Notes: generated by a model from the sequence alone, not told the origin. Positions 740 to 45,848 are shown, counted from the first letter of the stretch. The stretch: 64,000 bases of DNA from Candidatus Zambryskibacteria bacterium CG10_big_fil_rev_8_21_14_0_10_42_12 (GCA_002787695.1 PCXL01000013.1:31168-95167); one strand, 5' to 3'. Numbers and translations: made by a program.

Positions 740-1138
740 TCACCTATCTCCTTGCATCAACCTTTTGCTCTGAAAAATGATTTCCAAAGCCCAATCAAAC
801 AATAGAGCACACCGGCTACAATGCTCTATGTGATCCATCTGTAAATTGTAAGGTCCGACACTTCCGACACTGACGATCTCCTTCTCTAAGTAAGAATCCA
901 CCCTAACGAGTGCGTGTTGATAAATTCCGTGCATATCAAAACACACGAACTTACCATTGAAGATAATGCCTGCTACTGTTTTGCATTCACTGATTTTTGA
1001 ATGGATAGCCCTTTTCTTTTTTCGCTTACAATACAGACATTCTTGAGTGTGCTTCCTATACAAATGCAGTTTAGCTTCAGTATGTTCAGTACGAGGGTCG
1101 AAGAGTTCCAGGAAACTCCTTCTGTCTAGACAGCTCAT
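740..1138 (-). CDS. Hypothetical protein with two HxxxCxxC (zf-HC2/ZAS-like) motifs
   Basis: HTQECLYC and HIEHCSRC; GGGAGG upstream of the ATG; TTGACA at 1195-1190. Confidence 0.6.
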   Translation of the reverse strand: MSCLDRRSFLELFDPRTEHTEAKLHLYRKHTQECLYCKRKKKRAIHSKISECKTVAGIIFNGKFVCFDMHGIYQHALVRVDSYLEKEIVSVGSVGPYNLQMDHIEHCSRCALLFDWALEIIFQSKRLMQGDR

Positions 1139-1222
1139 GTGACTCAATCCTCCCTAATCCTCAGAGATATTTACATCAATACACAAAAATGTCAACTCAG
1201 ATCAAAACAGCAATTCATTATT

Positions 1223-1256
1223 AAAGGCGAGCATCGGAGTGCTAACGCTCGCCTTT
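1223..1256 (-). terminator. Hairpin terminator after ORF 1262-1576
   Basis: AAAGGCGAGC...GCTCGCCTTT inverted repeat. Confidence 0.6.
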
Positions 1257-1261
1257 CCTCC

Positions 1262-1576
1262 CTATTTTCCTTTTGGCCAGATGCCTCCGCCATTATGTGC
1301 GAAAACATGGCATTTCATACCTTCTTTGAACTGGCCTGCGGTAACCCTGACAGCGACTCCATTCATTCCGCACCCTGAAAGGGTCAATACTTCCTCATCC
1401 GGATTACCGCTTTTTTTTACTGACAAAACAACATAATTGCCTACCAGTAATTCCTCAGGCTCCAGAGGCCTAAGAATGACACTGTCTCTGCCTCTGCGAT
1501 ATCCTACACGATAAGATATTGCGCAGAGACCACATACCGCAACCACAAGCATAAACCAAAGGATTGCTTCTAGCAT
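1262..1576 (-). CDS. Hypothetical single-pass membrane protein (ORFan)
   Basis: N-terminal TM ILWFMLVVAVCGLCAISY followed by RVGYRRGR; SD AGGAGGT before ATG 1576; TTGACA-17-TAATTA promoter at 1634-1606. Confidence 0.6.
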   Translation of the reverse strand: MLEAILWFMLVVAVCGLCAISYRVGYRRGRDSVILRPLEPEELLVGNYVVLSVKKSGNPDEEVLTLSGCGMNGVAVRVTAGQFKEGMKCHVFAHNGGGIWPKGK

Positions 1577-1636
1577 CAGTGGGGGACCTCCTGTTTCCAT
1601 AGAAGTAATTACACTATTGGAGACGTCCTGTCAAAA

Positions 1637-2419
1637 TTAAAAAATAAAAATTAGTAGTAGAGCTAAAACAACTCGATACCACACAAAAGGCATAAGTGTG
1701 TGTCCTTTTAAGAACTTTACGAGAAAATGAATCGCCCACAGACCTGATATAAATGCAGCACATGCTCCAATGATTATCGGAACATTAAACACGAACGCGT
1801 TATCACCTAAAAAAACCTCTACAATCCCGGCTCCGAGAATAATTGGTATAGAAAGTAAAAAACTAAATCTCACCGCATCATCTCGGGTAAATCCAAGTAT
1901 AAGTCCTCCAGAAATCGTAGAGCCCGATCTGGATATGCCAGGTATCAGGGCTAATGCCTGAAAACAACCCACGAAAAATCCTCTCTTCCCTGTGATTTCT
2001 TTATTTCTTTTTGAAACTTTTTCCGCAACAACAAAAAGAATACTCCCCATAATAAGTGCTATCGAAACCGATATAGTGCTTCTAAATGCACCTTCAATAG
2101 TCGACGCAAACAGTGCCCCCAAAAGCCCCGCTGGTATTGTTCCAATCACAAGAGCAACTATCAGATTCCTTTCTCGATGAAGCACGTCTTGTCTCATCAT
2201 CATTCTTTTAAAAACATCAACTACATGTATAATATCTTTCTTGAAATACACCACAACAGCCAAAAGGGTTGCCAAATGTAACATTACGTCAAATGAAAGG
2301 TTATGTATGGTTGTGCCGAAAAATTCATGGAGAAGAACCAAATGTCCCGATGAAGAGACGGGTAAAAATTCTGTAAGACCTTGCACAACACCGAATATAA
2401 CTGCTTCAAAAATCGTCAT
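1637..2419 (-). CDS. uppP: Undecaprenyl-diphosphate phosphatase
   Basis: GVVQGLTEFLPVSSSGHL and PGISRSGSTI motifs; likely start MTIFEA. Confidence 0.96.
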   Translation of the reverse strand: MTIFEAVIFGVVQGLTEFLPVSSSGHLVLLHEFFGTTIHNLSFDVMLHLATLLAVVVYFKKDIIHVVDVFKRMMMRQDVLHRERNLIVALVIGTIPAGLLGALFASTIEGAFRSTISVSIALIMGSILFVVAEKVSKRNKEITGKRGFFVGCFQALALIPGISRSGSTISGGLILGFTRDDAVRFSFLLSIPIILGAGIVEVFLGDNAFVFNVPIIIGACAAFISGLWAIHFLVKFLKGHTLMPFVWYRVVLALLLIFIF

Positions 2420-2501
2420 AGAAATAACAATAGCATGAAAAAACGTCAATGGTAGAAAAAGCTTCTTCCTTTTGTTAGACTTGTATTCGTATTAATAAAT
2501 T

Positions 2502-3206
2502 ATGCGTATGGATAAAAATCTTTATATTCCCCTTGCAATTCTTGTAGCTGGTGGCCTCGTGGCCGGAGCTCTCTTTATGTCTCGTGGAGACAAACCTGCC
2601 GATACCGGTAGCCTTACTGGGACAGAAACTAATGCTAGCCTCGACAACGTACGTCCTATTGACGAGACTGACCACATTCTCGGAAATCCAGATGCCGACA
2701 TTATTATCGTTGAATACTCTGATACGGAATGCCCGTTCTGTAAGCAATTTCACAACACCATGCATCAGATCATGGATCAGTATGGGGCAGATGGAAAAGT
2801 GGCATGGGTATACCGACACTTCCCTATCCCACAACTTCACCCAAATGCACCCAAACAAGCAGAAGCGCTTGAGTGTGCAGCACGCATCGGTGGCAACGAC
2901 GCATTCTGGAAATATACAGACCGCGTATATGAAATAACTCCTTCAAACAATGGACTTGATATGGCACTCCTCCCACAAATTGCCGCAGAGATCGGACTTG
3001 ATAAAGTTGCATTCGAAGGGTGTCTTAACAACGGCACGACGAAAGAAAGAGTTGATGCTGACGCACTTAACGCAGTTGAAGTCGGAGGACGCGGAACACC
3101 AACAAGCGTACTCATCACAAAGAGTGGCAAGAAAGCACTCATCCCAGGAGCATATCCGTACCAGAACATGGTAACGATTATTGAGGAAGCATTGGATCAG
3201 ATCTAA
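2502..3206 (+). CDS. DsbA-family (Com1/BdbD-like) thiol-disulfide oxidoreductase, membrane anchored
   Basis: N-terminal anchor; EYSDTECPFCKQFH, YRHFP and GTPT cis-Pro loop. Confidence 0.9.
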   Translation: MRMDKNLYIPLAILVAGGLVAGALFMSRGDKPADTGSLTGTETNASLDNVRPIDETDHILGNPDADIIIVEYSDTECPFCKQFHNTMHQIMDQYGADGKVAWVYRHFPIPQLHPNAPKQAEALECAARIGGNDAFWKYTDRVYEITPSNNGLDMALLPQIAAEIGLDKVAFEGCLNNGTTKERVDADALNAVEVGGRGTPTSVLITKSGKKALIPGAYPYQNMVTIIEEALDQI

Positions 3207-3212
3207 CAGATC

Positions 3213-3247
3213 AGGTACTAGGTTTTAGGTGCTAGGTATTAGGTAAA
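3213..3247. repeat. Degenerate heptamer tandem repeat (AGGTNNT)x5
   Basis: AGGTACT AGGTTTT AGGTGCT AGGTATT AGGTAAA. Confidence 0.7.
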
Positions 3248-3275
3248 CAAAACCACCTCTCGGTGGTTTTGTTTT
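3245..3275 (+). terminator. Intrinsic terminator after DsbA
   Basis: AAACAAAACCACC-TCTC-GGTGGTTTTGTTTT. Confidence 0.75.
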
Positions 3276-3287
3276 ATAAATTAATCA

Positions 3288-3316
3288 GGCCCCGACGACA
3301 TTGCGTCGTCGGGGCC
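3288..3316 (-). terminator. 12-bp GC hairpin after mini-ORF 3330-3437
   Basis: GGCCCCGACGAC-ATTGC-GTCGTCGGGGCC. Confidence 0.6.
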
Positions 3317-3329
3317 CCGATGTTTTCGT

Positions 3330-3437
3330 CTACTTCGTTGGCGCATACCTCCTTGCGAGAACGATCCGTGCCTCAATCTCGGATCGAAGTGCAGGGTCGG
3401 TTGCGCGTTGCAGCGCCTGTTCAAGCGTTTCGAGCAT
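3330..3437 (-). CDS. 35-aa small protein not in the ORF track (MLETLEQALQRATDPALRSEIEARIVLARRYAPTK)
   Basis: GAGGAG SD; TGGACT-16-TATTGT promoter (3491-3464); downstream hairpin; 57% GC by hand count; helical-hairpin-like sequence. Confidence 0.55.
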   Translation of the reverse strand: MLETLEQALQRATDPALRSEIEARIVLARRYAPTK

Positions 3438-3548
3438 CTTCTGAACAACTCCTCTAAAGAAGAACAATATCAAAATATGATTAAAAGTCCATAGAATATC
3501 CAATCTAGACTGTGAATTGCTTCTATAATTTTCCCTCCTTTTCTTCTT

Positions 3549-6536: not shown

Positions 6537-6580
6537 AAACACAGTATATAGTACTTAGTACTTGGTAACTAGACTGCCAT

Positions 6581-6624
6581 AAAAAAACTGAAAGGGGTGC
6601 AATGCTTTGCATTGCACCCCTTTC
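6581..6624 (-). terminator. Intrinsic terminator after rpoD
   Basis: GAAAGGGGTGCAATGC-TTT-GCATTGCACCCCTTTC with a T-run on the minus strand. Confidence 0.8.
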
Positions 6625-6670
6625 TATCGCATCAACTATTAACTAAAGACTGTTGACGATTGACTGTATC

Positions 6671-7984
6671 TTAGTAGTAACTCCTCAGTCTCTCTACCTT
6701 CTCGTTATTCCTCAGTTTTTCAAGCGCCTTGGCTTCAATCTGTCGGATACGTTCGCGAGTAACACCAAATTTCTTCCCCACTTCTTCAAGTGTATGAGTA
6801 ATGCCATCAACCATGCCGTAACGAAGTTCTAGGATTTCGCGCTCTTTTTCAGGCAGCGAATCAAGCAACTCTTTCACTTGATCTCCTACAATTCTGCGCG
6901 ATACTTCTTGATCTGGCGAGAGAATCTTATCATCTGCCAAAAAGTCTCCGAGCTGACTCTTGTCCTCTTCTTCACCAACTGGACTTTCAAGTGACACCGT
7001 TCCTTGGTCAATTTTTTCAATCTGATATACCTTGTCAGTATCAAGACCCATTTCTAGTGCAATTTCTTCTGGCATCGGATCTCGTCCAAGGTCTTGCGAG
7101 AGTCTTCGGACAACTTGCTTATATTTTGCAATTGTTTCTACCATGTGTACCGGCACACGAATGGTACGTGACTGATCGGCAAGTGCGCGAGTAATCGCCT
7201 GACGAATCCACCATGTTGCATAGGTTGAGAATTTATACCCCTTGGTCCAATCAAACTTTTCAACTGCTTTAAAGAGACCGATATTCCCTTCTTGAATAAG
7301 GTCAAGGAGTGTCAGATCTGGACTTCGTCCAACATATTTTTTTGCGATAGAAACTACCAGACGCAGGTTTGCACGAGCAAGCAAATTTTTCGCTTCGTCA
7401 TCTCCCTTTTCGATACGTTTCGCGAGTTCTTTTTCTTCAGCACCTGAGATCAGAGTATGCTGACCAATTTCTCTAAGGTACATCTGGATTGAATCATGTG
7501 TACTTTCTCCTTCATACACCTTGTCGGAAGCATCGCTATCGCCACCCACACTCAACAGCCCTCCTCCTTCAAGGACATCGATCCCCGACGTAGAAAAACG
7601 TTCGTACAGTTCCTCGAGAAATACAATATCCTCTTCAATCGTAGGAAATTGTTTCAAAATCTCATCATAGGTGATGAAGCCACGATCCTTACCTTTGACA
7701 ATCAGCAAGTTAGCTTTTGTCTCAATTTCTTTAGCCTTTTTGGAAAGCTTTGGTTCCTTAACTGCTTTCTTTTTAGGTAGAGCTTTAGCAGCAGTTTTCT
7801 TTGCAACTTTCTTTGGGGCAATTTTTTTAACCATCTTTTTGCGTTCTTTGATGATTTTCTTTGCCGGCTTTCGTGCAACCTTCTTTACGACCTTCTTAGG
7901 CGTCGTCTTTTTAGCAGCTTTTTTCTTGGAAGCAGTTTTCTTTGGTGCAGTTTTTTTAGTAGCCGTTTTCTTTTTTGGAGCCAT
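6671..7984 (-). CDS. rpoD: RNA polymerase primary sigma factor with Lys-rich N-terminal extension
   Basis: [63 protein letters not shown]. Confidence 0.97.
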
Positions 7985-7993
7985 TATATGTTC

Positions 7994-9682: not shown

Positions 9683-9731
9683 ATATTGATCGTTTTACAA
9701 ACAACCACACACAGGAGCAAGAAACGAAACA

Positions 9732-12700: not shown

Positions 12701-13454
12701 CAGCAGCACCAGCTTTTTCTGAATCTGCCTCGAGCTGTGTCAAAAGAGCCTTCAAATCAATTTCTCGGAGAAGCTTGTAGATTGCCTCAGCTCCGATTTC
12801 TGTTTCAAACATTGTTCCATACCGAACTGAATAGTGATGATATTGCACTTCATCAAGTACCTGTCCTTTACGGATACCTTCGATCTCACGTTTTGCTGTC
12901 AAAAGCATTTCCTTGAGACCCTCTTTAGCTTTTTCATCTGACAGAGAACCAACCTTTGATTTGAATTCTGAATCAAGATCTCGCAACACGCGCTTTCGTT
13001 CATCCTCGACAACATGTGTGACAAGGTATCCTGCAAAATACACCACGCGTTCAATATCCTGTGCTGGAATGCCAGTGATGAGTGCAACACGTGAAGGAAT
13101 ACCCTTAAGGAACCAAATGTGTGCCACAGGAGATGACAATTCAATATGTCCCATTCGTTCACGACGCACAATTGATCGGGTGATTTCAACGCCACACTTT
13201 TCACAGACAATTCCTTTGTAGCGAATACCACGATATTTTCCACAGTAACATTCAAAGTCCTTATCTGGTCCGAAGATTTTTTCGTCAAACAAACCGTTCT
13301 TTTCGCTGCGCTGCGTTCTATAGTTAATAGTCTCCGGCTTTGTCACTTCTCCATGTGACCACTCGAGAATTCGTTCTGGTGATGCAAGCTTGATTGTGAT
13401 GAAATCAAAATCTTGTGCATCGCTTTTTGGTTTTCTTGTTTGGATTGTTTCCAT
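9732..13454 (-). CDS. rpoC: RNA polymerase beta' subunit
   Basis: [12 protein letters not shown] catalytic motif, Zn-finger cysteines; start METIQ at 13454 after the rpoB stop. Confidence 0.98.
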
Positions 13455-13479
13455 AATATTTTTATTTAACCGGATGCTA

Positions 13480-17078: not shown

Positions 17079-17107
17079 TTGACTTTGTATTATATTTATG
17101 CTATTAT
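17079..17107 (+). promoter_or_regulatory. sigma70 promoter of small ORF
   Basis: TTGACT-17-TATTAT with extended -10 TG. Confidence 0.7.
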
Positions 17108-17128
17108 TATCTCAGGAGTGAGAGAGAC

Positions 17129-17260
17129 ATGAAACAAGCATTCGGGCTCATCGCCCTCACCGTTCTTTTTTTCTTCCCCATTCTGAGCGACCTCGCTCAG
17201 AAGTCCGGAGGTCAGCTCACGGCCCTCGCCGCCGTGACAGAAGTTGCGGCGAACCAATGA
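17129..17260 (+). CDS. 43-aa small hydrophobic, signal-peptide-like protein (ORFan)
   Basis: AGGAG SD; MKQAFGLIALTVLFFFPILSDLA...; own promoter and terminator. Confidence 0.6.
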   Translation: MKQAFGLIALTVLFFFPILSDLAQKSGGQLTALAAVTEVAANQ

Positions 17261-17273: not shown

Positions 17274-17317
17274 AGAGCCGCCCATCCTTCACAGGATTCG
17301 GGCGGCTCTTTTCGTTT
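17274..17317 (+). terminator. Intrinsic terminator
   Basis: AGAGCCGCCC...GGGCGGCTCT followed by TTTCGTTT. Confidence 0.75.
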
Positions 17318-21037: not shown

Positions 21038-21065
21038 TTGACTTATATTTTTAATATGATATTAT
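21038..21065 (+). promoter_or_regulatory. sigma70 promoter of ORFan
   Basis: TTGACT-16-TATTAT, starting 10 nt after the rnr stop. Confidence 0.65.
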
Positions 21066-21093
21066 AAACACATCGCTCAAGGAGGGCGAGACC

Positions 21094-21369
21094 GTGTATA
21101 CAGATTACAGTCCATTGGTTAACTTTCCCCGATTTCGCAACTACCGCGGCCACCAGGTCGTAGTAATCGAAGGAGGAGAAAGAGCGAGTGACGTTCTAAG
21201 GTTTGCCAGAAGACACGAATTGACCACCGTTGACACGGATGGCGACGAAACCTTCTGGATCGTGTTTGCTCTCGAACCCAGACGGGTTTGGGACTTCACG
21301 GCACGAGCCTTACGACGAACGCTTTGGTCGGGGCGCTACCCCGGCGGGACACCGCGACAACCAAAGTAG
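21094..21369 (+). CDS. GC-rich hypothetical protein (ORFan)
   Basis: AAGGAGGG SD 7 nt before GTG; own promoter; hairpin at about 21493-21518. Confidence 0.55.
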   Translation: MYTDYSPLVNFPRFRNYRGHQVVVIEGGERASDVLRFARRHELTTVDTDGDETFWIVFALEPRRVWDFTARALRRTLWSGRYPGGTPRQPK

Positions 21370-21525
21370 CCTCGCTGCCGTCTACGCCCGGCCAAAGACG
21401 TAGGGCGCGACCGTCGCGCCACGGACGCCGGCCCGATCGCCGGCGGGACGCTGAATCTGTATATACTAAAAAAATTATGTAAGTTTCATCACACAGGCCT
21501 TCGGGCCTGTTTCTTTTTATAAATT

Positions 21526-33501: not shown

Positions 33502-33566
33502 GATTCAAAAAAATAGTTAGCTACCAATATGTTCATTATAACATAGAGCGTTTTGAATCATCTTTT

Positions 33567-33694
33567 GCGGAGAGGGAGGGACTACGAACCACTGGGAAAC
33601 CCTCGGTTTTCCCAAACCTTCCTCCACGGGAAACTCCCGTTTCCAGACCCCTTCCCGTTCGAATCCCAAAGGGTTCCGCTTTCGTAAACTCAAG
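33567..33694 (-). repeat. tRNA-3'-anchored structured mini-element ending in a degenerate copy of the tRNA-Ser 3' end
   Basis: GCGGAGAGGG direct repeat at 33567 and 33694; inverted T-arm-like ends; two internal hairpins. Confidence 0.65.
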
Positions 33695-33781
33695 CGGAGA
33701 GGGGGAGATTCGAACTCCCGGTACGGTTGCCCGTACGCCACGTTTCCAGCGTGGTACATTCGACCACTCTGTCACCTCTCC
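33695..33781 (-). tRNA. tRNA-Ser(GGA), CCA not encoded
   Basis: GGAGAGG acceptor, CCACG-CTGGAAA-CGTGG anticodon arm, long variable arm, GGGAG-TTCGAAT-CTCCC T-arm, discriminator G. Confidence 0.95.
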
Positions 33782-34684: not shown

Positions 34685-34747
34685 AACAATTTAAATTAAC
34701 CTAGTCTGCTTATTCTAACATGAGATAATAAGCATGACACTCAGGTA

Positions 34748-34768
34748 TACCAAGGTTCAACCTTTGTA
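34748..34768. repeat. REP-like palindrome, copy 1
   Basis: TACCAAGGTTCAACCTTTGTA, 20/21 match to the inverted copy at 54459-54479. Confidence 0.6.
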
Positions 34769-34772
34769 ATAA

Positions 34773-35672: not shown

Positions 35673-35731
35673 AAAATAAGCTTATAACTTTTATCTTACA
35701 GCTTCAAGCTTTCTTCAATCAATTAGTATTT

Positions 35732-37282
35732 TCACCAACTTCCTCCCCCGCCTCCACCAGCTCCGCCACCTGAACTACCGCCACCTCCAGAAGCACTCGT
35801 GCCAGACGATGTTGCGAGTGAGCTTGAAAACGCACTCATGTCGCTACTAAATGCTGTCGCAGAAAACGCACCTGCTGTGCCACCTTCATACCACGTTGGG
35901 TCAGGAATAATCATATCGTCGAATACCTTTGCCCATTCTTTCTCCACACCAAAGGCAATAGCGTACGGCAAATATTCCAAAAATTGTTCAGAATTTTTCT
36001 GTGGTGCATTGTGAAATTTAAACCGATCTTTTCCTGTAACCGAGAGAAATTCCTTAAACCCTTTCAAGTGATTCATTGCTTCGTATCCTTTTCGTGTCCT
36101 GCGCGTAAGTAATCCAGCATCTTCAAAATATCCTTCCTTTTTCATGTCATCCTTCAATTCTTTTGTAAGATCTCTAAGAATTGTAGAATTGAGACGCCTC
36201 TGTGACATATTTTTCTTCAACTCTGAAAGAGTCACTGTATTCCCTTTATTTGTTCGCTCACCAAAAAGTAGCTTAAATGACTTAAGTAAAAATTGGTCGA
36301 CTATCTCGTCACGAGATTTGAGTGTCTCGATTTCATAATCGTCTATTGGAAAGAATAAGAATTTCTTTTCTGTTTTTGTAATTTTCAAAATTCCTTGTTC
36401 TGCTAAATACACAATCGCCGCGGTAATATCATGAGTATGGAGTGTGTTGTCTACCAACATTCCTGCGTATAGTGGATTTATACGATTATATGGTTCATAT
36501 TCTGGAATAATGGGACCGTGTATTTTATGCTTGGTTAACACTCGATATGTCCATACCGGCAATGCAACAAACATGATTATGAAAAGAAGCGGTATGAGCC
36601 AAAGAAAATTGAATGCTTCCAATATGACAACCGGCATATTGGGGCTAAGTGACTGCGCAACCGTCAACCCTTCTCTGCTACCCATGTTTTGCCCGATGAA
36701 TATTGCAATATTTTCAAAAGATGCCGAGTCACATCGTGCATTACTTCTCTCAACACCGATATAACACACCTGATCCACACCCAACACGCCTTGTGGCGCA
36801 TTTATTTCTATACGTGCATTTTCTATTGAAACAGGCCATTCGTTACCAGTGGCATTCCAATAGAGTTCGACTATATCGTTTGTCTTAAATAGCGCACCTT
36901 CTACCTCATAAACAATCGTGTATGTATGCGGACCGGTTATTGTTTTGTCCGGGTCTCCTATTTTTATCTCAATATTTTTTCCTGGTGTGGAGATGTTATA
37001 AGGAACTTGTTCTCCATCCATGAGCACTGACTCCACCTCAATATCTATATACCGATCCTTGTACCAAGCACTTGCATCCTGCGGATGATTTGTGGGAATA
37101 GTACGGAAAATACCGTGCCTTTGTGCACTTTCAAAATCATAGAGAATTTCTTCTGTTACCGTAAAAGAACCGTCATCACGAAGATCAATGTATACATCAA
37201 AATTTCCTATCACTTCTGCTGAAACAGAAAAAGGAAGTAGTCCAAGCCATCCAAAAACAATAATCTTGAAAAGAATATTCAT
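35732..37282 (-). CDS. DUF2207 family membrane protein
   Basis: VTEEILYDF...HGIFR, ELYWNATG, YLPYAIAFGV, C-terminal GGGAGGGGGGSW. Confidence 0.88.
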   Translation of the reverse strand: MNILFKIIVFGWLGLLPFSVSAEVIGNFDVYIDLRDDGSFTVTEEILYDFESAQRHGIFRTIPTNHPQDASAWYKDRYIDIEVESVLMDGEQVPYNISTPGKNIEIKIGDPDKTITGPHTYTIVYEVEGALFKTNDIVELYWNATGNEWPVSIENARIEINAPQGVLGVDQVCYIGVERSNARCDSASFENIAIFIGQNMGSREGLTVAQSLSPNMPVVILEAFNFLWLIPLLFIIMFVALPVWTYRVLTKHKIHGPIIPEYEPYNRINPLYAGMLVDNTLHTHDITAAIVYLAEQGILKITKTEKKFLFFPIDDYEIETLKSRDEIVDQFLLKSFKLLFGERTNKGNTVTLSELKKNMSQRRLNSTILRDLTKELKDDMKKEGYFEDAGLLTRRTRKGYEAMNHLKGFKEFLSVTGKDRFKFHNAPQKNSEQFLEYLPYAIAFGVEKEWAKVFDDMIIPDPTWYEGGTAGAFSATAFSSDMSAFSSSLATSSGTSASGGGGSSGGGAGGGGGGSW

Positions 37283-37319
37283 CAAAAATTAGACATCTTC
37301 AGATGCGCAATAACAATGC

Positions 37320-37889
37320 TTAGAAACTAACCTTTACCGGATCTTTTGCAGCCTGTTCGTCTTCGCCAAGCTCAAAGAATTCGTGTTTGTAGAATTTAAA
37401 CATGTTAGCAATCATGTTTGACGGGAATGACTCAATCATAGTGTTGATATCACGCACGTTACCATTGTAGAAGCGACGAGCTGCCTGGATTTTGTTTTCA
37501 GTATCTGACAATTCCTGTTGCAATTTTGCAAAGTTTTCGTTTGCTTTGAGGTCCGGATACGCCTCGGCAACTGCAAAGAGAGACTTGAGTGTACCTGAGA
37601 GCATATTTTCTGCCTTTGCCATTTCTGCTGGATTGCCGGATTGCTCCGCACCCATAGCAGCAGCACGTGCACGTGTTACGTTCTCAAATGCTTCCCTCTC
37701 ATGTGTTGCATACCCCTTTACAGTTTCAACAAGATTTGGGATGAGGTCATATCGACGCTTCAATTGCACGTCAATATCTGCCCACGCTTCTTCTGTACGG
37801 TTTCGAAGCGCTACGAAGCGATTATAGGTGTAAATGATGTACACAACCAAAACCGCAAGAACAATGAGGATTATAAGAATTGGATTCAT
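37320..37889 (-). CDS. lemA: LemA family protein
   Basis: DVQLKRRYDLIPNLVETVKGYA.HE, AEAYPDLKAN, ARRFYN. Confidence 0.95.
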   Translation of the reverse strand: MNPILIILIVLAVLVVYIIYTYNRFVALRNRTEEAWADIDVQLKRRYDLIPNLVETVKGYATHEREAFENVTRARAAAMGAEQSGNPAEMAKAENMLSGTLKSLFAVAEAYPDLKANENFAKLQQELSDTENKIQAARRFYNGNVRDINTMIESFPSNMIANMFKFYKHEFFELGEDEQAAKDPVKVSF

Positions 37890-37968
37890 GAATGCGTAAT
37901 TACCTGAAATTATTAATCTTTTTTATTATACCACGCAAAAACCGCACTCTGAAGTGCGGTTTTCTTTT

Positions 37969-39609
37969 TTAATATCCCATTCCTCCCATATCTGGTGCAC
38001 CATTTTCTTTCTTTTCCTCTGGAATATCGGTGATTGCTACTTCTGTGGTGAGGAAAATGCCTGCAGCACTGGCTGCGTTTTGGAGCGCCGTACGTGTTAC
38101 TTTCACCGGATCAATAATGCCGGCTAGAAGCATGTCGTCTACTATTTTGTCGTTTAGTGCATCGTATCCTGCATTTTCTTTCTTAGATTCGAGCACCTTT
38201 TCTACAATGATAGAACCGTCTCCTTTGCCACTGTTTGCAGCAATTTGCTTGAGTGGAGAGACGAGTGCATCAATCACGATAGAGTAGCCAAGCCTCAGAT
38301 CCGCATCATCTAGTTTATCCATTGCTCCGTAAACTTTCTGTGCCGTTTTCACAAGAGCACTTCCGCCTCCGGCGACTACACCTTCGGCGATCGCTGCTTT
38401 GGTAGCATTGACTGCGTCCTCAATCTTGAGTTTCAAATATTTCATCTCGGTTTCTGTCGGTGCTCCTACACGAATGACCGCAACGCCACCAGAGAGCTTT
38501 GCTATACGTTCATCGAGTTTTTCTTTGTCATATTTTGAAGTTGTTTTTGTGCGCTGTGCCTTGATCGCTTCCACCCGTGCTTCAATATCTGCTTTCTTAC
38601 CTTTTCCTCCGACAATAAGTGTTGAATCTTTTGTAGATACGATACGACTTGCTTTACCAAGAATTGACAGATCGGCTGTTTCAAAGGTTAGTCCCGTGCT
38701 TTCAGTAAGCACCGTACCACCAACAGTAGTCGCAATATCTTCAAGCATTTCTTTCTTTCGGTCTCCATAACCGGGCGCTTTGATACCGAGCACAGAGAAT
38801 CCGCCACGAAGTTTGTTTACCACAAACGTCGTCAGTGCTTCCCCTTCTATATCATCTGCAATAATAACAAGCTCTTTAACGCCTGATTGTGTTACTTTCT
38901 CCAAGAAAGGCAAAATTTCTTTTACATTTGAAACTTTTTTGTCTGTAATGAGAATTGCAGGATCTTTGAATTCAGCCTCCATGCGCTCTGCGTTCGTTAT
39001 CATGTATGCAGATACATACCCTTTATCAAACTCAAGCCCTTTTACAACTTCTGGTTCTTCAATAGAGAGTGATTGTGCTTCTTCTACTGTTACAACACCG
39101 TCTTTGCCAACTTTTTCGATCGTATTGGCAATGATGCGCCCAATCTCTTCGCTTTCTGCAGAAATAGTTGCGACTTGTTTTATTTCATCTTTATCCTTAA
39201 TAGGTTTTGCTGCTTTTTTGAGAGCTTCTACTGCAACGGTAGCTGCTTTTTCAATACCGCGACGAAGCGTCATAGCATTAACCCCAAGTGCCGTATGGCG
39301 CATGCCTTCTGAAATAAGTGCGTGTGTCAAAACTGTTGCAGTCGTAGTACCGTCTCCTGCTATGTCATTTGTTTTTTGGGCAACCTCTTTAATAATCTCC
39401 GCACCCATATTCTCAAATTTGTCTTTGAGACTTATTTCTTTAGCAATAGATACGCCGTCGTTTGTGATCATGGGACCACCGTATCCACGATCAAGGGCCA
39501 CATTTCTACCACGAGGACCGATGGTTACACGCACTGCGTTTGCGACAACATCAATGCCGTTCTTTAGCTTTGCGCGAGCGTCTTCATGAAAAATTACTTG
39601 TTTTGCCAT
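37969..39609 (-). CDS. groEL: Chaperonin GroEL
   Basis: GPRGRNV, AGDGTTTAT, ERIAKLSGGVAVI. Confidence 0.98.
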   Translation of the reverse strand: MAKQVIFHEDARAKLKNGIDVVANAVRVTIGPRGRNVALDRGYGGPMITNDGVSIAKEISLKDKFENMGAEIIKEVAQKTNDIAGDGTTTATVLTHALISEGMRHTALGVNAMTLRRGIEKAATVAVEALKKAAKPIKDKDEIKQVATISAESEEIGRIIANTIEKVGKDGVVTVEEAQSLSIEEPEVVKGLEFDKGYVSAYMITNAERMEAEFKDPAILITDKKVSNVKEILPFLEKVTQSGVKELVIIADDIEGEALTTFVVNKLRGGFSVLGIKAPGYGDRKKEMLEDIATTVGGTVLTESTGLTFETADLSILGKASRIVSTKDSTLIVGGKGKKADIEARVEAIKAQRTKTTSKYDKEKLDERIAKLSGGVAVIRVGAPTETEMKYLKLKIEDAVNATKAAIAEGVVAGGGSALVKTAQKVYGAMDKLDDADLRLGYSIVIDALVSPLKQIAANSGKGDGSIIVEKVLESKKENAGYDALNDKIVDDMLLAGIIDPVKVTRTALQNAASAAGIFLTTEVAITDIPEEKKENGAPDMGGMGY

Positions 39610-39615
39610 TTAAAT

Positions 39616-39696
39616 TAGCTTTTAGCTTAAAGCTTTTAGCTTTTAGCTTTGATTCGAATCAAAAGCATGAAGCGTAAAGCGAGAAGCCCGAAGCGG
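39616..39696. repeat. Two opposed heptamer tracts around a 16-bp palindrome between groES and groEL
   Basis: (TAGCTTT-like)x5, TTTGATTCGAATCAAA, (nAAGCnn)x5. Confidence 0.75.
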
Positions 39697-40032
39697 TTAT
39701 CTTATTATTGCTAAAATATTGTCTTCCTTGAGCATGTAGTAATCTTCGCCTTCGACTTTTATTTCATCATATGCATATTTTGAGAAAATAACGGTATCCC
39801 CCACGTTTACAGAAATAGGAATACGTACACCATCATCTATTCTTCCGTCACCAACTGCCAATACTTTTCCTTGTTCCGGTTTTTCTTTATCTAATGTATC
39901 AGGAATAATAATGCCACTTACCGTTTTACCACCCATCTCTTCAGGTGAAAATGGTTTTACAAGAACTCTGTCTCCGAGTGGAACAATGTTTATCTTCTTT
40001 ACAGAAGACGCTTTTTTTATGGTTTTCTTCAT
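39697..40032 (-). CDS. groES: Co-chaperonin GroES
   Basis: PLGDRVLV, SGIIIPD, EKPEQGKVLAVG; promoter TTGCAT-17-TATAAT at 40106-40078. Confidence 0.97.
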   Translation of the reverse strand: MKKTIKKASSVKKINIVPLGDRVLVKPFSPEEMGGKTVSGIIIPDTLDKEKPEQGKVLAVGDGRIDDGVRIPISVNVGDTVIFSKYAYDEIKVEGEDYYMLKEDNILAIIR

Positions 40033-40111
40033 ACAGTGAGTCTATCTTATTATCTCTTAATAATAAAATGCGAGGACATTATAATGAGCACAGATAAAGT
40101 ATGCAATAGTG

Positions 40112-40140
40112 AAGGGCGCGACATCGCTGTCGCGCCCTTT
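40112..40140. terminator. Hairpin downstream of the PEP-CTERM gene
   Basis: AAGGGCGCGACA-TCGC-TGTCGCGCCCTT. Confidence 0.6.
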
Positions 40141-40188
40141 GTTGCGCCAAAGACCCCTCTTTGACACCACCAGAAACCCCGTTCCGGC

Positions 40189-40827
40189 TTACCTCTTCGT
40201 GTAGCGCTTCCGGAGAAGCGCGAGACCGATCAGTGCCGTGCCCATGAGAAGGCTTGTAGTCGGCTCCGGCACTGCTTCGACGCTGATGATCTGATCATTG
40301 AAGTCGTAATCCGTCGGACTTCTCAGATCTTCGACGCCAACGGACCATCCATTTGTAGACCCTGCACTTCTCATTGCGAGGAATCGATCGATTGAACTCG
40401 ATGAGAACACGTCGCCTCCGCCCGTGTTGATGACAAACGCCCATCCCTCGAGGGGAGCAATCGTCTGTTTCATGATCGGACTGTCGGGACCGTCAAAGAT
40501 CGGATTGAATGTCGCGAGGTTACTGAGCGGTGCCCAGCCGAGCTGGTTAGAACCCGCGTAGCCCGCCACTTCGGTCAGCAGAGTAACGTTGTATGTCCCA
40601 GCGCTGAAGCTGAACATGCCTGGCACTCCGCCTGAGAGCAGGTACTCATCGACCTGCCCAGAGAGAATGTCGACTGCCGTCCCGGGTGGATTGCCATCCC
40701 AAGAGGGGCCGAGCGCTGGTGGCGTGTTCGACCAGGTCGAACCTCCAATCGCGCTGATCGTTGCCGCCGAGAGTGGCAAAGTGAAGAACATGAGGGTGGT
40801 CGCAAGGACCAAGTGTTGAAATTTCAA
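40189..40827 (-). CDS. PEP-CTERM sorting-domain protein with DUF4114-like segment
   Basis: Signal peptide; GVEDL..TDYDFND; VPEPTTSLLMGTALIGLALLRKR; GAGGAG SD; TTGACA-16-TAATGT. Confidence 0.85.
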   Translation of the reverse strand: MKFQHLVLATTLMFFTLPLSAATISAIGGSTWSNTPPALGPSWDGNPPGTAVDILSGQVDEYLLSGGVPGMFSFSAGTYNVTLLTEVAGYAGSNQLGWAPLSNLATFNPIFDGPDSPIMKQTIAPLEGWAFVINTGGGDVFSSSSIDRFLAMRSAGSTNGWSVGVEDLRSPTDYDFNDQIISVEAVPEPTTSLLMGTALIGLALLRKRYTKR

Positions 40828-40956
40828 CGGGGGATCTCCTCGGGCCCTGCTGTACGCATCGGCCCTACCAGTTATTTACATTACATAAAAATAATGAATT
40901 GTCAATGAAATTACACATATTGCCCCATTTTTCATTCCATGTATAATGGACCTCAC

Positions 40957-41181
40957 ATGGACGCAATTCTGCCATACATACAGATATTTCTATCCATTCT
41001 CCTTATCGTACTTATCCTGCTTCAAAGATCTGAAGCCGGTCTTGGAAGCGCTTTTGGAGGCGGAGATTCGATGAGTTCGATAAACTACACCCGACGAGGC
41101 TTTGAGCGAGTGCTCTTTTCTGCAACTATCGTTATCGCAATTCTGTTTGTATTGTCTGTATTTACTGCACTGGTACTCTAA
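40957..41181 (+). CDS. secG: Preprotein translocase subunit SecG
   Basis: ILLQRSEAGLGSAFGG...TRRGFE, two TMs. Confidence 0.9.
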   Translation: MDAILPYIQIFLSILLIVLILLQRSEAGLGSAFGGGDSMSSINYTRRGFERVLFSATIVIAILFVLSVFTALVL

Positions 41182-41234
41182 AACAATAAATTATTTGTAA
41201 CTAAAAGAGACATATTTGTGTCTCACATACTATT

Positions 41235-42959
41235 GTGGCATTGGAACATAACCTTCCGGAAAAGAAGACCGGGACATTAGGCAAGCTTCACGAAGCACTT
41301 CCGTATACATCACTCATGGAACGCATTTTGCTTTTCCTGTTTGCTGTAGCACTTATCGGCGCAACACTGTTAATGTTGTGGCGCATAAATGAAAACTTTT
41401 TAGTCACCGTACCCGCTGATGGCGGATCACTTGTCGAGGGTATTGTAGGTACCCCACGATTTGTTAATCCGGTCCTTGCACTCACTGATGCTGATAAAGA
41501 TCTTTCAATGCTTGTATATTCTGGACTCATGCGACCAAGTGTTGATGGATTAACGTTTGATTTAGCAGAAAATTACGACATATCTGAGGACGGACTTACG
41601 TATACATTTCATATAAAAGACAACATAACATTTCATAATGGAGATTCTGTGACCGCCGAAGATGTTGCTTATACCATCTCCATGATCCAAGACCCGCTCG
41701 TTAAAAGTCCACAGCGATCAAATTGGGAAGGTGTAAAGGTAAGCATTGTTGATCAGTACACAATCAGTTTTACATTAAAAGAATCTTACTCTTCGTTTCT
41801 TGAGAATACAACGTTAGGCATATTGCCCAAATCTGTATGGAAAGACTTGAGTCCTGAGCAATTTTCTCTATCTGAACAAAACGTAAACCCCATTGGTTCG
41901 GGGCCATACAAAATAGCTTCGATTGATAAAGATAAAGACGGATTTCCTAAAACGTACATACTAAAACCATTTACATCATATGCACTCGGTGCACCACATA
42001 TTTCTCGCATCACCACGCATTTCTTCGTAAATCAGACTGAACTTATTGAAGCATTGAAGCGCAAGGAAATAGACTCTGCGAGTGCCATCACCCCATCTCA
42101 TATCAAAGACCTTTCTGAAGGACAATTCCATTTTGAAACTGTTGTACTACCTCGTGTATTCGCAATATTTTTTAATCAAAATAAACAACCAGTCTTTGCA
42201 AACACAGAAGTCCGAGAGGCACTCAATACTGCTGTAAACAGAGACATCTTGATCGAAACGGTGCTTGGTGGATTTGGAGAAGCACTTGACGGACCATCAC
42301 CCGATGATGTACAAACATATGATACAGAGGAAGACCCCATTTTAATCGCTCAAACCATTCTCGAAGAAAACGATTGGGAAAAGGATGAAAGTGGTATCTA
42401 TAAAAACGGATCAGAAACTCTCGCATTTACAATCACTACTGCTGACGTGCCAGAATTAAAGGCGGCAGCAGAACATGTTCAAAGCGTCTGGAGACTCGTT
42501 GGTGCTGATGTGAAAGTCGAAGTATACGATACAACCGCTTTGAACCAAAATGTTATACGACCTCGCGAATTCGACGCACTCCTGTTTGGTGAAGTAGTCG
42601 GCAGAGATAGAGATTTGTATCCATTTTGGCACTCCTCTGGCAGAAATGATCCAGGACTCAATGTCGCCCTCTATACGAACGGTGCAGTTGACAAACTGCT
42701 CGAGAGTATGCGCAAAACAACTGATCCGGTCACATGGCAGACTGATTATGAGGCTGTAAGAGAAGAGATTAAATCCGACTTTCCCGCAGTATTCTTGTAT
42801 GCGCCCAAGCTTATATATATAACGCCTGATTTCGTAAACAATTTCTCATTTGCTGATATTGGAATCGCCTCAGAACGATTCAGTACAATTCATGAGTGGT
42901 ATATCGATACACAACGCGTTTGGAACATATTTGCACAAAAAACAATTAAAAATTATTAG
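41235..42959 (+). CDS. Peptide ABC transporter substrate-binding protein (family 5)
   Basis: LVYSGL, DGLTYTF, FHNG..VTAEDV, PIGSGPY, VREALN.AVNR. Confidence 0.88.
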   Translation: MALEHNLPEKKTGTLGKLHEALPYTSLMERILLFLFAVALIGATLLMLWRINENFLVTVPADGGSLVEGIVGTPRFVNPVLALTDADKDLSMLVYSGLMRPSVDGLTFDLAENYDISEDGLTYTFHIKDNITFHNGDSVTAEDVAYTISMIQDPLVKSPQRSNWEGVKVSIVDQYTISFTLKESYSSFLENTTLGILPKSVWKDLSPEQFSLSEQNVNPIGSGPYKIASIDKDKDGFPKTYILKPFTSYALGAPHISRITTHFFVNQTELIEALKRKEIDSASAITPSHIKDLSEGQFHFETVVLPRVFAIFFNQNKQPVFANTEVREALNTAVNRDILIETVLGGFGEALDGPSPDDVQTYDTEEDPILIAQTILEENDWEKDESGIYKNGSETLAFTITTADVPELKAAAEHVQSVWRLVGADVKVEVYDTTALNQNVIRPREFDALLFGEVVGRDRDLYPFWHSSGRNDPGLNVALYTNGAVDKLLESMRKTTDPVTWQTDYEAVREEIKSDFPAVFLYAPKLIYITPDFVNNFSFADIGIASERFSTIHEWYIDTQRVWNIFAQKTIKNY

Positions 42960-42986
42960 TTTCAGTTTATTTACAATTAACATTTC

Positions 42987-44951
42987 ATGACAATACGAAC
43001 ATACAGAAGGGATACACCTTCTCACCCTAAAGAATCATCTTCAGACGGAAGACCGCGCGTGCGTACGGTGCGCCTTTCTCCACAGGGAAAAAATCCAGTT
43101 AAAGGTCGTCCACTTCGAGACCAGAAAGAACGCGAACAAAGACCGGCACGACCACACGGGCATCACAAACCAACCAGGCCTGCCGGAAAATCAAGGATGA
43201 ATCGCAATTTTCCGAGAGTTAAACATGCTGGCTCGCGAAGAGAGACTCATGCAGAGGTCACCATTCCTCCTGTAGGAGACAACATTCGCATCATGCCACT
43301 TGGCGGTGTAGAGGAGATCGGTCGCAACATGACCGCTATCGAGATTGGAAACGATATTTTCGTTATTGACGCCGGATTTCAATTTAGAGATGAAGATACG
43401 CCTGGCATTGACTACATTCTTCCAAATATTAAATATCTTGAAGACAACAAAGACAGGGTTCGTGCAGTAATTATCACTCATGGTCACCTTGATCACATCG
43501 GTGGTATTCCCTACATCATGAATCGCATTGGCAATCCTCCACTCTACTCTCGAGCGCTCACCACGGTGATGATAAAAAAACGTCAAGAGGAATTTCCTCA
43601 TTTGCCACCTATTGATATCAAAGTGGTTGAGAAAAACGACAGAATAACTATAGGAAATCTCAAGGTGCGCTTCTATGCAGTTTCGCACACTATCCCGGAT
43701 TCAATGGGAATCATTATCGAATCACCATACGGATGGATTACCACACCGGGTGACGTGAAGCTCGATCATATTGATGGTGAACCTACTGACGCAGAAAAAG
43801 GTGAATACGCAGTATTTAAGGATCAAAATGTACTGTTTCTCATGATGGACTCAACAAACGTTGATCATCCTGGTTGGTCTACACCAGAAAGAAAAGTAAC
43901 TGAAGGCATGGATCACGTGATTAAAAACACAAAAGGCCGTCTCATCATCGGTACTTTTGCGTCACAGATCGAACGCATGCTCAATATTATCGAGATTTGC
44001 GAAAAATATGGAAAGAAAGTCGTCGTTGAAGGACGTAGTATGAAGCAGAATATCGAAATTGTTCGTGCAACCGGAAGACTCAAAACCAAGGAAGGCACTC
44101 TCATCTCTGTTGAACAAATGCAAGATTATCCACCAGATAGGATCGTGGCTCTCGTAACAGGAGCACAAGGAGACGAGTTTGCCGCCCTCATGCGCATGTC
44201 TATGAAGACTCACAAATACTTCACTGTTTCAAAGCGCGATACGATTTTGCTTTCTTCGTCTATCATTCCAGGCAACGAAACCTCTGTACAGAGACTCAAA
44301 GACAATCTTGCGCGACAAGGTGCAAAAATTATTCACTACAGATCAAGTGATGTATATATTCACTCAACTGGACATGGTAATCGTGGTGAACTTGAATGGA
44401 TTCACAAACAGATCAAACCAAAATTCTTTATGCCAATTCACGGCAGTCACTACATGCTACGGGTACATGAGGATCTCGCACAATCAGTTGGTATGCCAGC
44501 TGACCACATTGTTGTTCCAGACAATGGCTCAATCGTTGAAATACAAGAGAAAGGTGCAAAAATGGTGGTATTACCTCAGAAAACTCCAGGAGGACCACTT
44601 ATCGTTGACGGATTCTCCGTTGGTAGCATCCAAGATGTTGTGATTCGAGATCGCAAGATGCTCGCCGCTGACGGCATGTTTATCATCGTTGCAAGCCTCA
44701 ATATGAAAACGGGTAAATTAAAGAAAAGTCCTGACCTCATCTCTCGTGGTTTCGTGTATCTTAGAGAGTCACAGGAACTCTTAAACAATGCACGCGGTGT
44801 AATCAAACAAACAATTGAGACCAGTACAAAGGGCATGAATCCGATCAATTTTGATTTCATCAAAGGACAAGTAACGGATGCCGTGAGCGCATATCTCTTC
44901 CAAAAAACAGCAAAGAGACCTGTTGTTATTCCAGTTATTCTTGGAGTGTAG
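42987..44951 (+). CDS. rnj: Ribonuclease J with basic N-terminal extension
   Basis: PLGGVEEIGRNM, THGHLDHIGG, HTIPDS, HSTGHG, PIHG. Confidence 0.95.
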   Translation: MTIRTYRRDTPSHPKESSSDGRPRVRTVRLSPQGKNPVKGRPLRDQKEREQRPARPHGHHKPTRPAGKSRMNRNFPRVKHAGSRRETHAEVTIPPVGDNIRIMPLGGVEEIGRNMTAIEIGNDIFVIDAGFQFRDEDTPGIDYILPNIKYLEDNKDRVRAVIITHGHLDHIGGIPYIMNRIGNPPLYSRALTTVMIKKRQEEFPHLPPIDIKVVEKNDRITIGNLKVRFYAVSHTIPDSMGIIIESPYGWITTPGDVKLDHIDGEPTDAEKGEYAVFKDQNVLFLMMDSTNVDHPGWSTPERKVTEGMDHVIKNTKGRLIIGTFASQIERMLNIIEICEKYGKKVVVEGRSMKQNIEIVRATGRLKTKEGTLISVEQMQDYPPDRIVALVTGAQGDEFAALMRMSMKTHKYFTVSKRDTILLSSSIIPGNETSVQRLKDNLARQGAKIIHYRSSDVYIHSTGHGNRGELEWIHKQIKPKFFMPIHGSHYMLRVHEDLAQSVGMPADHIVVPDNGSIVEIQEKGAKMVVLPQKTPGGPLIVDGFSVGSIQDVVIRDRKMLAADGMFIIVASLNMKTGKLKKSPDLISRGFVYLRESQELLNNARGVIKQTIETSTKGMNPINFDFIKGQVTDAVSAYLFQKTAKRPVVIPVILGV

Positions 44952-45061
44952 AGGAAGTCAAGAGTCATAAGTCCTCAGTCAAACGCAATACAAAAAAGAA
45001 TGACCCGCCACCGGCGGGTTTTTCTATTGGAAGGGGCACGGCGGGCCCGAAGGCCCGCCCC

Positions 45062-45472
45062 TTACGCAACTTTTTGTCTACAATTCTGCAGACTGTCGCT
45101 CTCGATGCGTTTGATGAGAGCCTGACCTAGCTTCTCTGGATCACTCGATACAAGCAACACCTCATGATCGATTGGTGCACCCTTTGCAGGGCGCCACCCA
45201 ACCATTGCGCGACCCTTTCGAATGAGGTATACACGCGTTACGTTCCCATACTTCACCAAAATACATGAAGCTTGTGGAAGGTGTCGCAGTGCATAGACCA
45301 AAAGGCCACGATCACGGGCATAGGTAGCACAATCATCAAGAACAGCTTCGCGTGCTACACGCCGCGTCATACGGCGTTTTGGCAATCGCATCTCGTATAT
45401 GATTTCTCTTTTCCCCACAAGCGGCAACGCCATGAAGACAAGACAAATCGCGAGAAGAATCCACAACGTCAT
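45062..45472 (-). CDS. Hypothetical protein with N-terminal TM (ORFan)
   Basis: CGGAG SD; TTGCCA-17-TATTCT promoter (45552-45524); GC hairpin at about 45030-45062. Confidence 0.6.
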   Translation of the reverse strand: MTLWILLAICLVFMALPLVGKREIIYEMRLPKRRMTRRVAREAVLDDCATYARDRGLLVYALRHLPQASCILVKYGNVTRVYLIRKGRAMVGWRPAKGAPIDHEVLLVSSDPEKLGQALIKRIESDSLQNCRQKVA

Positions 45473-45587
45473 AAAATGACTCCGAAAGAACGGTGTCCCA
45501 AATGGGACTTTGCTCCGCAAGAGAGAATAACCTATCGCGATTAATATGGCAAATGTGAATATGTTTTGAGGAGGACCGTAGTCCTCC

Positions 45588-45746
45588 TCACTTCTTCACC
45601 TCCTGTAGATTACGACGAGCCTTTTGTTCGTCTCGCCAGAGACGGAATCCTAAATAGGCACCCACGAGCAGTTCTGCACCGCACATAAACCAGGCAAAGC
45701 CCCATCCGGGTTCCCAGTTCGCCAACAAATCAAAAAAGGGGTTCAT
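45588..45746 (-). CDS. 52-aa single-TM small protein not in the ORF track
   Basis: MNPFFDLLANWEPGWGFAWFMCGAELLVGAYLGFRLWRDEQKARRNLQEVKK; GGGAG SD; hairpin 45567-45590. Confidence 0.6.
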   Translation of the reverse strand: MNPFFDLLANWEPGWGFAWFMCGAELLVGAYLGFRLWRDEQKARRNLQEVKK

Positions 45747-45848
45747 CCTGTAGTACTCCCGTGTAATTTTTTACCATACTTCATATTTTTTGTAAAGCCA
45801 TTCTTTATATACAGTGCACATCTCTCATATATCCGTACAATTAAAGAC

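Follow-up and report, generated by a model that had tools for sequence, protein, structure and literature searches.

The genome of Candidatus Zambryskibacteria bacterium CG10_big_fil_rev_8_21_14_0_10_42_12 (G000) contains a class of small, dispersed genes that are led by Shine-Dalgarno (SD) sequences, in a cell whose 16S rRNA lacks the anti-SD. Eight of these genes, here called cassettes, lie in the window, a stretch of 64,000 nucleotides (nt) (GCA_002787695.1 PCXL01000013.1:31168-95167) on a 114-kb contig. The G000 assembly comprises 675 kb in 26 contigs and is 98% complete, and gene content together with the 16S places it, by inference, in the Patescibacteria group without uL1 and anti-SD. 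The contrast between core genes and cassettes was confirmed as real and genome-wide. Our preferred reading, to which we assign a probability of about 0.5, is that the symbiont transcribes the cassettes and that the ribosomes and sorting machines of a partner cell would use the mRNAs.

The single 16S gene of G000 ends in helix 45 and an AT-rich tail without an anti-SD. The same is true of G001, a sister species in the same genus (59% complete; core amino-acid identity to G000, 69%), and no CCTCC that might serve as a hidden internal anti-SD was found anywhere in the 16S of either genome. Nor was an anti-SD present at the 16S 3' end of G046 or G047, or in any of 44 further 16S ends from genomes that carry the export tags described below (44 of 67 had the anchor). 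Loss of the CCTCCT at the 16S 3' end is published for a Parcubacteria subgroup (Tsurumaki 2022, PMC9297842), and G000 resembles that subgroup also in having no rplA behind rplK; the available text of that paper, unlike the present data, assumes no SD helices and mentions no SD-led gene class. The core genes of G000 conform to such a ribosome, as the preliminary description of this DNA had proposed. No SD precedes rpoC, rpoB, rpoD, gap, nrdA, groEL or groES, and only 10 of 418 core genes have one. Matches of at least 4 nt to the SD occurred at 27 of 568 core starts compared to 278 of 2955 internal ATGs, and 95 of 412 core genes look leaderless, with TAnnnT 6-7 nt ahead of the ATG.

Some further features of the 16S region were observed. 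The 16S gene of G000 (contig C9, about 830-920; L001) holds an insert of short AGCT-rich repeats that is unlike the insert of G001, and the groES-groEL spacer of the window (39610-39690) is filled with AAGCT repeats resembling it. Two small SD-led open reading frames (ORFs) lie about 300-600 nt behind the 16S gene (C9:1596-2094).

A scan of the 220 gaps between core genes of G000 returned 53 units of promoter, SD and GC-rich ORF. Reversing the gaps gave 11 units, and five block shuffles that preserve local composition gave 6-11; the same scan of G001 gave 47 units against 5-12 in controls. We count about 45 real cassette units among the 743 called genes of G000. Genes were called with a hexamer-based caller, the start positions of which can be wrong. 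Outside core genes, 18 of 59 TTGAC-N16-18-TAnnnT sites led to an SD-ORF, whereas four scrambled versions of the -35 word gave 5 of 105; another control word, ACTTG (7 of 19), was left out on account of its overlap with the real -35. No GC filter was used for these sites, and the GC of the SD-ORFs behind them was at least 0.48 in 16 of 18. One cassette list was GC-filtered; the claims about GC rest on the unfiltered promoter scan, on ortholog pairs and on a class definition blind to the SD, by which 18 of 26 members in G000, 18 of 25 in G001 and 8 of 16 in the part of G047 examined had an SD. The SD-led cassettes keep a sharp GGAG core. Their promoters are GC-poor (0.29-0.32), and the stretch running from leader to hairpin is GC-rich. 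The hairpin 3' of the stop had a median of -22 kcal/mol in cassettes (n=53) versus -13 in 170 core genes, and T-rich bases follow 54 of 83 strong hairpins. The SD is thus not equally common before core genes.

The elements of the eight cassettes in the window are as follows (aa, amino acids):

740..1138, minus strand: 132-aa ORFan of core-like GC; SD GGAGG at 1149-1153; promoter TTGACA/TAAATA at 1168-1195
1223..1256, minus strand: hairpin after 1262-1576, -20.4 kcal/mol
1262..1576, minus strand: 104-aa ORFan with a hydrophobic N-terminal segment; SD AGGAGGT at 1586-1592
1606..1634, minus strand: promoter TTGACA-17-TAATTA, beginning 2 nt past the uppP stop
3287..3328, minus strand: GC-rich hairpin, -29.8 kcal/mol
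3330..3437, minus strand: 35-aa ORF; SD AGGAG at 3449-3453; promoter TGGACT-16-TATTGT at 3464-3491
17129..17260, plus strand: 43-aa membrane peptide at the rpoB|trmD junction; SD AGGAG at 17114-17118; promoter TTGACT-17-TATTAT at 17079-17107
17274..17309, plus strand: terminator-like hairpin, -25.9 kcal/mol, then T-rich bases
21094..21369, plus strand: 91-aa ORFan at the rnr|smc junction; SD AAGGAGG at 21079-21085; promoter TTGACT-16-TATTAT at 21038-21065
21404..21445, plus strand: GC-rich hairpin or hairpins, -28.6 kcal/mol
40103..40145, minus strand: hairpin, -26.3 kcal/mol
40189..40827, minus strand: 212-aa protein with signal peptide, DUF4114-like domain and PEP-CTERM tail, in the groES|secG slot
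40836-40840 and 40878-40905, minus strand: SD AGGAG and promoter TTGACA-16-TAATGT of the 40189..40827 gene
45031..45063, minus strand: hairpin, -21.0 kcal/mol, followed by a second hairpin
45062..45472, minus strand: 136-aa membrane-anchored ORFan at the rnj|MFS junction; SD GGAG at 45480-45483; promoter TTGCCA-17-TATTCT at 45524-45552
45567-45590, minus strand: hairpin of 45588..45746, -18.0 kcal/mol
45588..45746, minus strand: 52-aa membrane peptide; SD GGAG at 45756-45759; weak promoter TGGCTT-16-TATGGT at 45773-45800

All eight ORFs are open as the preliminary description had drawn them, and each has an SD (GGAGG, AGGAGGT, AAGGAGG, AGGAG three times and GGAG twice) at an aligned spacing of 6-10 nt. 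The sigma70-like promoters attributed to them hold for five genes (3330, 17129, 21094, 40189 and 45062), which have a -35 box, a 16-17 nt spacer and TAnnnT; the -35 of 45588 is weak, and 740 and 1262 combine TTGACA with an imperfect -10. Hairpins of -18 to -30 kcal/mol follow the stop in seven of the eight, and none follows 740-1138 (-7.9). Seven cassettes have a GC of 0.46-0.57 compared to 0.416+-0.039 in core genes, whereas 740-1138 is at 0.41; without a hairpin or raised GC, it is the weakest member. In five of the translated proteins the N-terminus is hydrophobic or forms a signal peptide, in agreement with the membrane or secreted cargos first described, and -35 boxes do follow closely on core stops, at distances of 2 nt (uppP) and 10 nt (rnr). 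The protein encoded by 45062..45472 had itself as its sole match among 5.8 billion proteins.

The preliminary description had proposed a cassette capture and exchange system without an integrase. The exchange part was supported to some extent: junctions are reused above chance, and the cargo mostly differs in the sister species. G001 has a cassette at all five window junctions that its assembly covers, the junction of 740 and 1262 lying outside it. The cargo is unrelated at four of the five, with a different 67-aa SD-led ORF at the junction of 3330-3437, a 53-aa SD-led peptide at rpoB|trmD and, at rnr|smc, an oppositely oriented SD-led ORF of 92 aa; at groES|secG, G001 has an ortholog of the 40189..40827 protein (53-55% identity). 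Across 168 syntenic junctions, 7 were filled in both genomes, 7 and 10 in one only, and 144 in neither (odds ratio 14, p 7e-5), with two window cassettes entered by hand and rnr|smc missed by the pipeline. In other families, 17 of 29 groEL loci had the same neighbour gene; among these the spacer was short in 14 (at most 675 nt, versus 1203) and held a different SD-led ORF in one. The integrase is indeed absent from the cassettes, as the one tyrosine recombinase gene (PF00589) of G000 lies on contig C3. All-against-all blastn and 7-mer counts revealed no shared attC-like or terminal sequence in 99 cassette flanks, the matches being promoter boxes, T-runs, overlaps and syntenic pairs, and leaders and 3' flanks had no export or recombination motif in common. 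An Rfam scan of the window matched a single tRNA, and no empty-site joint was found at a cassette among the joints listed from metagenome contigs, where runs X2-X4 give thin cover. The neighbours of the cassettes are core genes, with no phage or prophage setting, and the cassettes are dispersed, each with its own promoter, rather than in a promoterless tandem array.

Several cassettes encode export tags for which no reader was detected. The 40189-40827 protein has both the signal peptide and the tail of VPEP, helix and basic residues that define PEP-CTERM proteins, and the tail scored 26.6 bits with PF07589 (cut-off 20.7) and 24.8 with TIGR02595 (cut-off 16). Exosortase (PF09721) was not found in the 98% complete G000, where a divergent enzyme is possible. 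Among 185,579 species, the PEP-CTERM domain had one close relative, L274, apparently the gene of the sister species, and it had no relative in viral contigs. In an order-level survey of 301 genomes, PF07589 was found in 41 (including the unpublished G249, which enters this count only). No exosortase was detected in any of the 41 carriers; one genome of the 301 scored over the cut-off, and all four matches lay outside the carriers. Of 21 complete PEP-CTERM genes examined, 17 were SD-led cassettes, eight loci with partial or unmatched frames having been left out. The type IX secretion (T9SS) tail PF18962 occurred in 31 of the 301 genomes, and BamA (PF01103) in 0 of 69 carriers; the control was found in 7 of 14. 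PGF-CTERM, a tag of archaeal type, was present in the same cassette format in 2 of 301 class-level genomes and would point to archaeal partners for these two, G529 and G567. Their genes (L276 and L277) are tiny and encode a signal peptide and PGF-CTERM behind a sigma70 promoter and SD. A plasmid search with one T9SS tail gave no placement. Lgt and LspA were not found in any of five genomes, and the lipobox pattern, a weak test, matched 3 of 13 cassette-like genes of G229, not all convincingly, and 0 of 45 in G000. A metagenome scan for a binding protein adjoining a cassette found three loci, all distant, and nothing closely related.

Start signals vary with tag type. According to the available text of PMC6847099, Bacteroidia do not use the SD, and cargo addressed to Bacteroidia would therefore be expected to lack it if partner ribosomes translate the cassettes. 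Tails of the NYPNPFNP type were SD-led in 7 of 7 genomes with a visible start, and other T9SS tails in 0 of 14, where some genes were assigned the tail type of a second gene in their genome and no start was visible for five of the aligned tails. For the one NYPNPFNP tail tested, the nearest Atlas clusters were mostly Ignavibacteriota. On the tail tree, the split between SD and non-SD genes is a single change (support 72/94; 0 of 500 shuffles). In 400 kb of G229, the promoter-led class had an SD on 1 of 15 members, that one at an internal start. The G229 promoters are of sigma70 type, and the leaders are A/C-rich and G-poor with A peaks at -12/-13. TAnnTTTG, which we take to be the Bacteroidetes promoter, occurred in 0 of 13 of these leaders. 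The 16S of G229 is not in its assembly; that of its genus-mate G054 has no anti-SD.

The co-variation extends beyond the tagged genes. Promoter-linked RGGAG was counted in 67 genomes, 64 of which were grouped by tag, and numbered 423 in 38 PEP-CTERM genomes (controls 164 and 164), 124 in 10 NYPNPFNP genomes (controls 40 and 36) and 92 in 16 genomes with tails that we read as Bacteroidia-like (controls 70 and 61). An excess of at least 4 was seen in 29 of 38, 7 of 10 and 1 of 16 genomes, respectively (family-level p 0.007). Two f72 genomes with tails that we read as Verrucomicrobia-like showed no RGGAG excess, and Verrucomicrobia classes appear low in SD use in the available part of PMC10783764, the meaning of the relevant column being inferred. 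Neither the SD-led class nor its co-variation with tags was described in the literature searched, with supplements and subscription journals lying outside the search, and a term search of the accessible text of a 2026 review (PMC13293708) returned neither 'mRNA' nor 'ribosome'.

The signals persist over long divergence. In the PEP-CTERM orthologs of G000 and G001, fourfold sites are saturated (0.29 identical, 0.31 expected, n=66), yet GC at these sites (GC4) is 0.70 and 0.79, compared to 0.36 and 0.30 in 183 core pairs, and GAGGAG is kept in leaders that otherwise differ. Two other ortholog pairs, their synonymous sites likewise saturated or nearly so, had a GC4 of 0.67/0.77 and 0.48/0.58. In one pair besides the PEP-CTERM orthologs, the proteins are 29% identical and the region of promoter, leader and SD is 80% identical over 66 nt. 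Eight PEP-CTERM pairs were all saturated, and GC at third positions (GC3) exceeds that of flanking ORFs in most loci. A reciprocal-best-hit table of GC3 and SD consisted mostly of shadow frames of RNA genes and left three usable cassette orthologs. A relic would presumably approach the composition of core genes over time; the retention of SD and high GC despite synonymous saturation thus indicates that the cassettes are not fresh captures, and the capture of foreign cassettes, as first proposed, fails to explain it.

The alternative offered in the preliminary description, modules tuned for a partner cell, is better supported for translation and sorting, and not for transcription. The cassettes combine the symbiont's own sigma70 promoter with an SD that its anti-SD-less ribosome cannot pair. 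Their mRNA would be made in the symbiont, handed to the partner, translated there and, if tagged, sorted. The tag type would mark the partner lineage, and selection for efficient reading by the partner's ribosomes would maintain SD and codon GC. It is mRNA, rather than DNA, that would move, because the promoter stays of sigma70 type even with a presumed Bacteroidia partner. A cytoplasmic conduit or a VirB4/VirD4-like system could be the route. Both ATPases, VirB4-like and VirD4-like, are encoded by conserved core genes (VirD4-like in 20 of 22 genomes). In G000, an AT-rich cluster adjoining dnaA/dnaN (C14:33906-47272) encodes a VirB4-like ATPase and several membrane proteins, and a VirD4-like ATPase is encoded separately (C9:12589-14379). 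In the available text of PMC11880426, a different Patescibacterium is connected with its host by a tube; such a tube and the VirB4/VirD4-like system would be candidate RNA carriers. We suggest, at slightly less than even odds, that the cassettes across this order of Patescibacteria amount to a second, exported transcriptome written in the partner's initiation, codon and sorting language, by which the partner would build and display symbiont proteins. The class is probably mixed, with some genes directed to the partner and others used by the symbiont.

Several observations weigh against translation in a partner. The case for expression and for the place of translation is built on sequence, the literature searched gave no earlier example of one prokaryotic species passing mRNA to another, and an SD reportedly does not stop a ribosome that lacks the anti-SD. 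No RNA run was listed as containing window 37000-46500, a result without bearing on expression. The co-variation of tag and SD is equally expected if the cassettes came from the partner together with their leaders. It has exceptions: G081 has a non-NYPNPFNP tail and 29 promoter-SD sites, the genome-wide counts of G133, G018 and G036 are at background despite their SD-led tails, 9 of the 38 PEP-CTERM genomes show little excess, and 4 of the 21 complete PEP-CTERM genes have no SD by the rule used. Carriers of PEP-CTERM and of T9SS tails overlap in two genomes, which is not below chance (p 0.28). A Patescibacteria (CPR) enzyme of unrecognised type could read the tags, and the PEP-CTERM helix can anchor a protein without cleavage. 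Related genomes share kinship, so that counts across genomes are non-independent, and the label 'Bacteroidia-like' is our own. GC3 of G000 cassettes spreads from 0.39 to 0.71, as amelioration would give, and persistence, the one argument that separates partner translation from partner-derived genes, draws on about five lineages. The thyA-folA cassette is probably an ordinary import used by the symbiont itself. Its GC is high and AGGAG precedes it, but its neighbours dcd, glyA, tmk and dut are core genes and ThyX was not found, so that it probably serves the symbiont. Elsewhere in the order, thyA types differ widely and an SD precedes 2 of 22 other thyA starts, and thyA was rejected as a general member of the class. 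In the thymidylate cluster of G000 (C15:17749-22570; dcd, folA-thyA, glyA, tmk, dut), only thyA-folA is inverted and GC-rich.

The strongest rival, which we regard as possible at about one chance in three, is that the cassettes are partner-derived genes, taken up as DNA through type IV pili and competence, set behind symbiont promoters at tolerant junctions and frequently swapped. The symbiont would make the proteins on its own ribosomes and employ them as adhesins, enzymes or mimics at its surface, with SD, GC and tags as donor legacies. This would account for the co-variation of tag and SD just as well as translation by the partner, and also for the reused slots with changing cargo. It fits thyA-folA and the GC3 spread, pilB and pilC lie within the window, and gene exchange is common in Patescibacteria in the available text of PMC12455944. 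Against it, the signals outlast synonymous saturation in orthologs that share a slot. No donor-like homolog was found for any of the three cargo proteins searched among 5.8 billion proteins, although unsampled donors are possible; these searches returned only self, one 71% relative or matches of 38-40 bits. Nor did the PEP-CTERM domain have a donor-like relative among the 185,579 species. Pfam matched 11 of 55 cargo proteins submitted from G000 and 11 of 61 from G001 and G047, where ordinary donor genes would show more.

A second initiation or regulation system internal to the symbiont, in which a protein or trans-acting RNA binds GGAG, or structured, GC-rich mRNAs are favoured for their stability, perhaps as a life-stage regulon, is improbable. 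The uniform build of the class and its sharp GGAG core would suit it, but the 16S of G000 and G001 holds no CCTCC, and in G229 and the majority of Bacteroidia-like genomes the class has no SD, though 16S ends across the order are alike in lacking the anti-SD. The orphan export tags would also be left unexplained. Still less probable is mutation or GC-biased conversion at recombining hotspots with SD-like words as a by-product. It could explain why cargo evolves faster than core genes and why cassette GC is raised at all codon positions; for the SD it is largely refuted by the block shuffles (6-11 units versus 53), by the G-poor leaders of the GC-rich G229 cassettes, and by SD-bearing T9SS cassettes with a GC3 of just 0.26-0.36 in several genomes. 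An assembly or binning artefact, to which a few tag matches elsewhere on short contigs (G081, G101) or multi-gene islands (G045) might be owed, is untenable for this window, because its cassettes are flanked by core genes within one 114-kb contig, G001 has cassettes at the same junctions, and Logan contigs of run X1, possibly the source sample, extend across window 38734-46500 with 0-1 differences. The run that best represents this DNA is from groundwater and may be its source.

Related systems differ from the cassettes in instructive ways. Phage morons, reportedly described by Hendrix and Juhala, are solitary genes that lie between conserved genes, each equipped with a sigma70 promoter and a terminator, and are expressed by host ribosomes. 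They share with the cassettes the unit of promoter, ORF and terminator, the deviant composition and swapping among relatives; here, however, the units occupy about 45 dispersed sites on the chromosome of a cell with its own ribosomes, and 1 of 29 cargo proteins tested matched PHROG. Integron cassettes are likewise single-ORF units with exchanged cargo and many ORFans, but those described here are dispersed, have their own promoters and no attC-like site, and the tyrosine recombinase lies on another contig. The tagged cargos resemble those of PEP-CTERM/exosortase and T9SS systems in N-terminal signal peptides and in tails that pass Pfam and NCBIfam cut-offs, whereas the carriers have no detected exosortase or BamA. 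The Bacteroidia with an SD-led rpsU, as the available text of PMC6847099 presents them, also combine an SD-less genome with SD-bearing exceptions, but they retain a sequestered anti-SD and use the SD for one gene, whereas here the anti-SD is gone and dozens of accessory genes are SD-led. The type IV secretion effectors of Saccharibacteria (PMC12592800) and the conduit of Mycosynbacter (PMC11880426) also deliver symbiont products into a host; in the accessible parts of these papers the products moved are proteins, and partner-type start signals matter only if RNA moves.

The analysis brings SD-led genes together with orphan tails of the PEP-CTERM and T9SS types as one gene class. If partners do translate the cassettes, mRNA delivery would be a normal event between prokaryotic species, a cell would act on its host as a virus does, the effector set could be defined from sequence, and the cassette signals would name the host lineage. 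Even if the genes are partner-derived, start signal, GC and export tag would read out the partner lineage and thereby allow the hosts of uncultured genomes to be predicted and tested.

Several minor features were also noted. A 177-aa ORF with a reverse-transcriptase-like motif, possibly partial, lies at C20:12085-12618 on the minus strand of G000; the motif resembles those of the reverse transcriptases of diversity-generating retroelements. Radical SAM/SPASM genes at L169:301-1335 and L167:11111-14148 are SD-led and GC-richer. Within the window, a hairpin-rich, GC-rich insert behind a tRNA gene (33520-33700) ends in a partial copy of the tRNA 3' end, with matches that recur in G001. A small glutaredoxin-like ORF on the plus strand (54297-54480) stands amid minus-strand genes, and a pilB-pilC-pilin cluster occupies 59980-64000.

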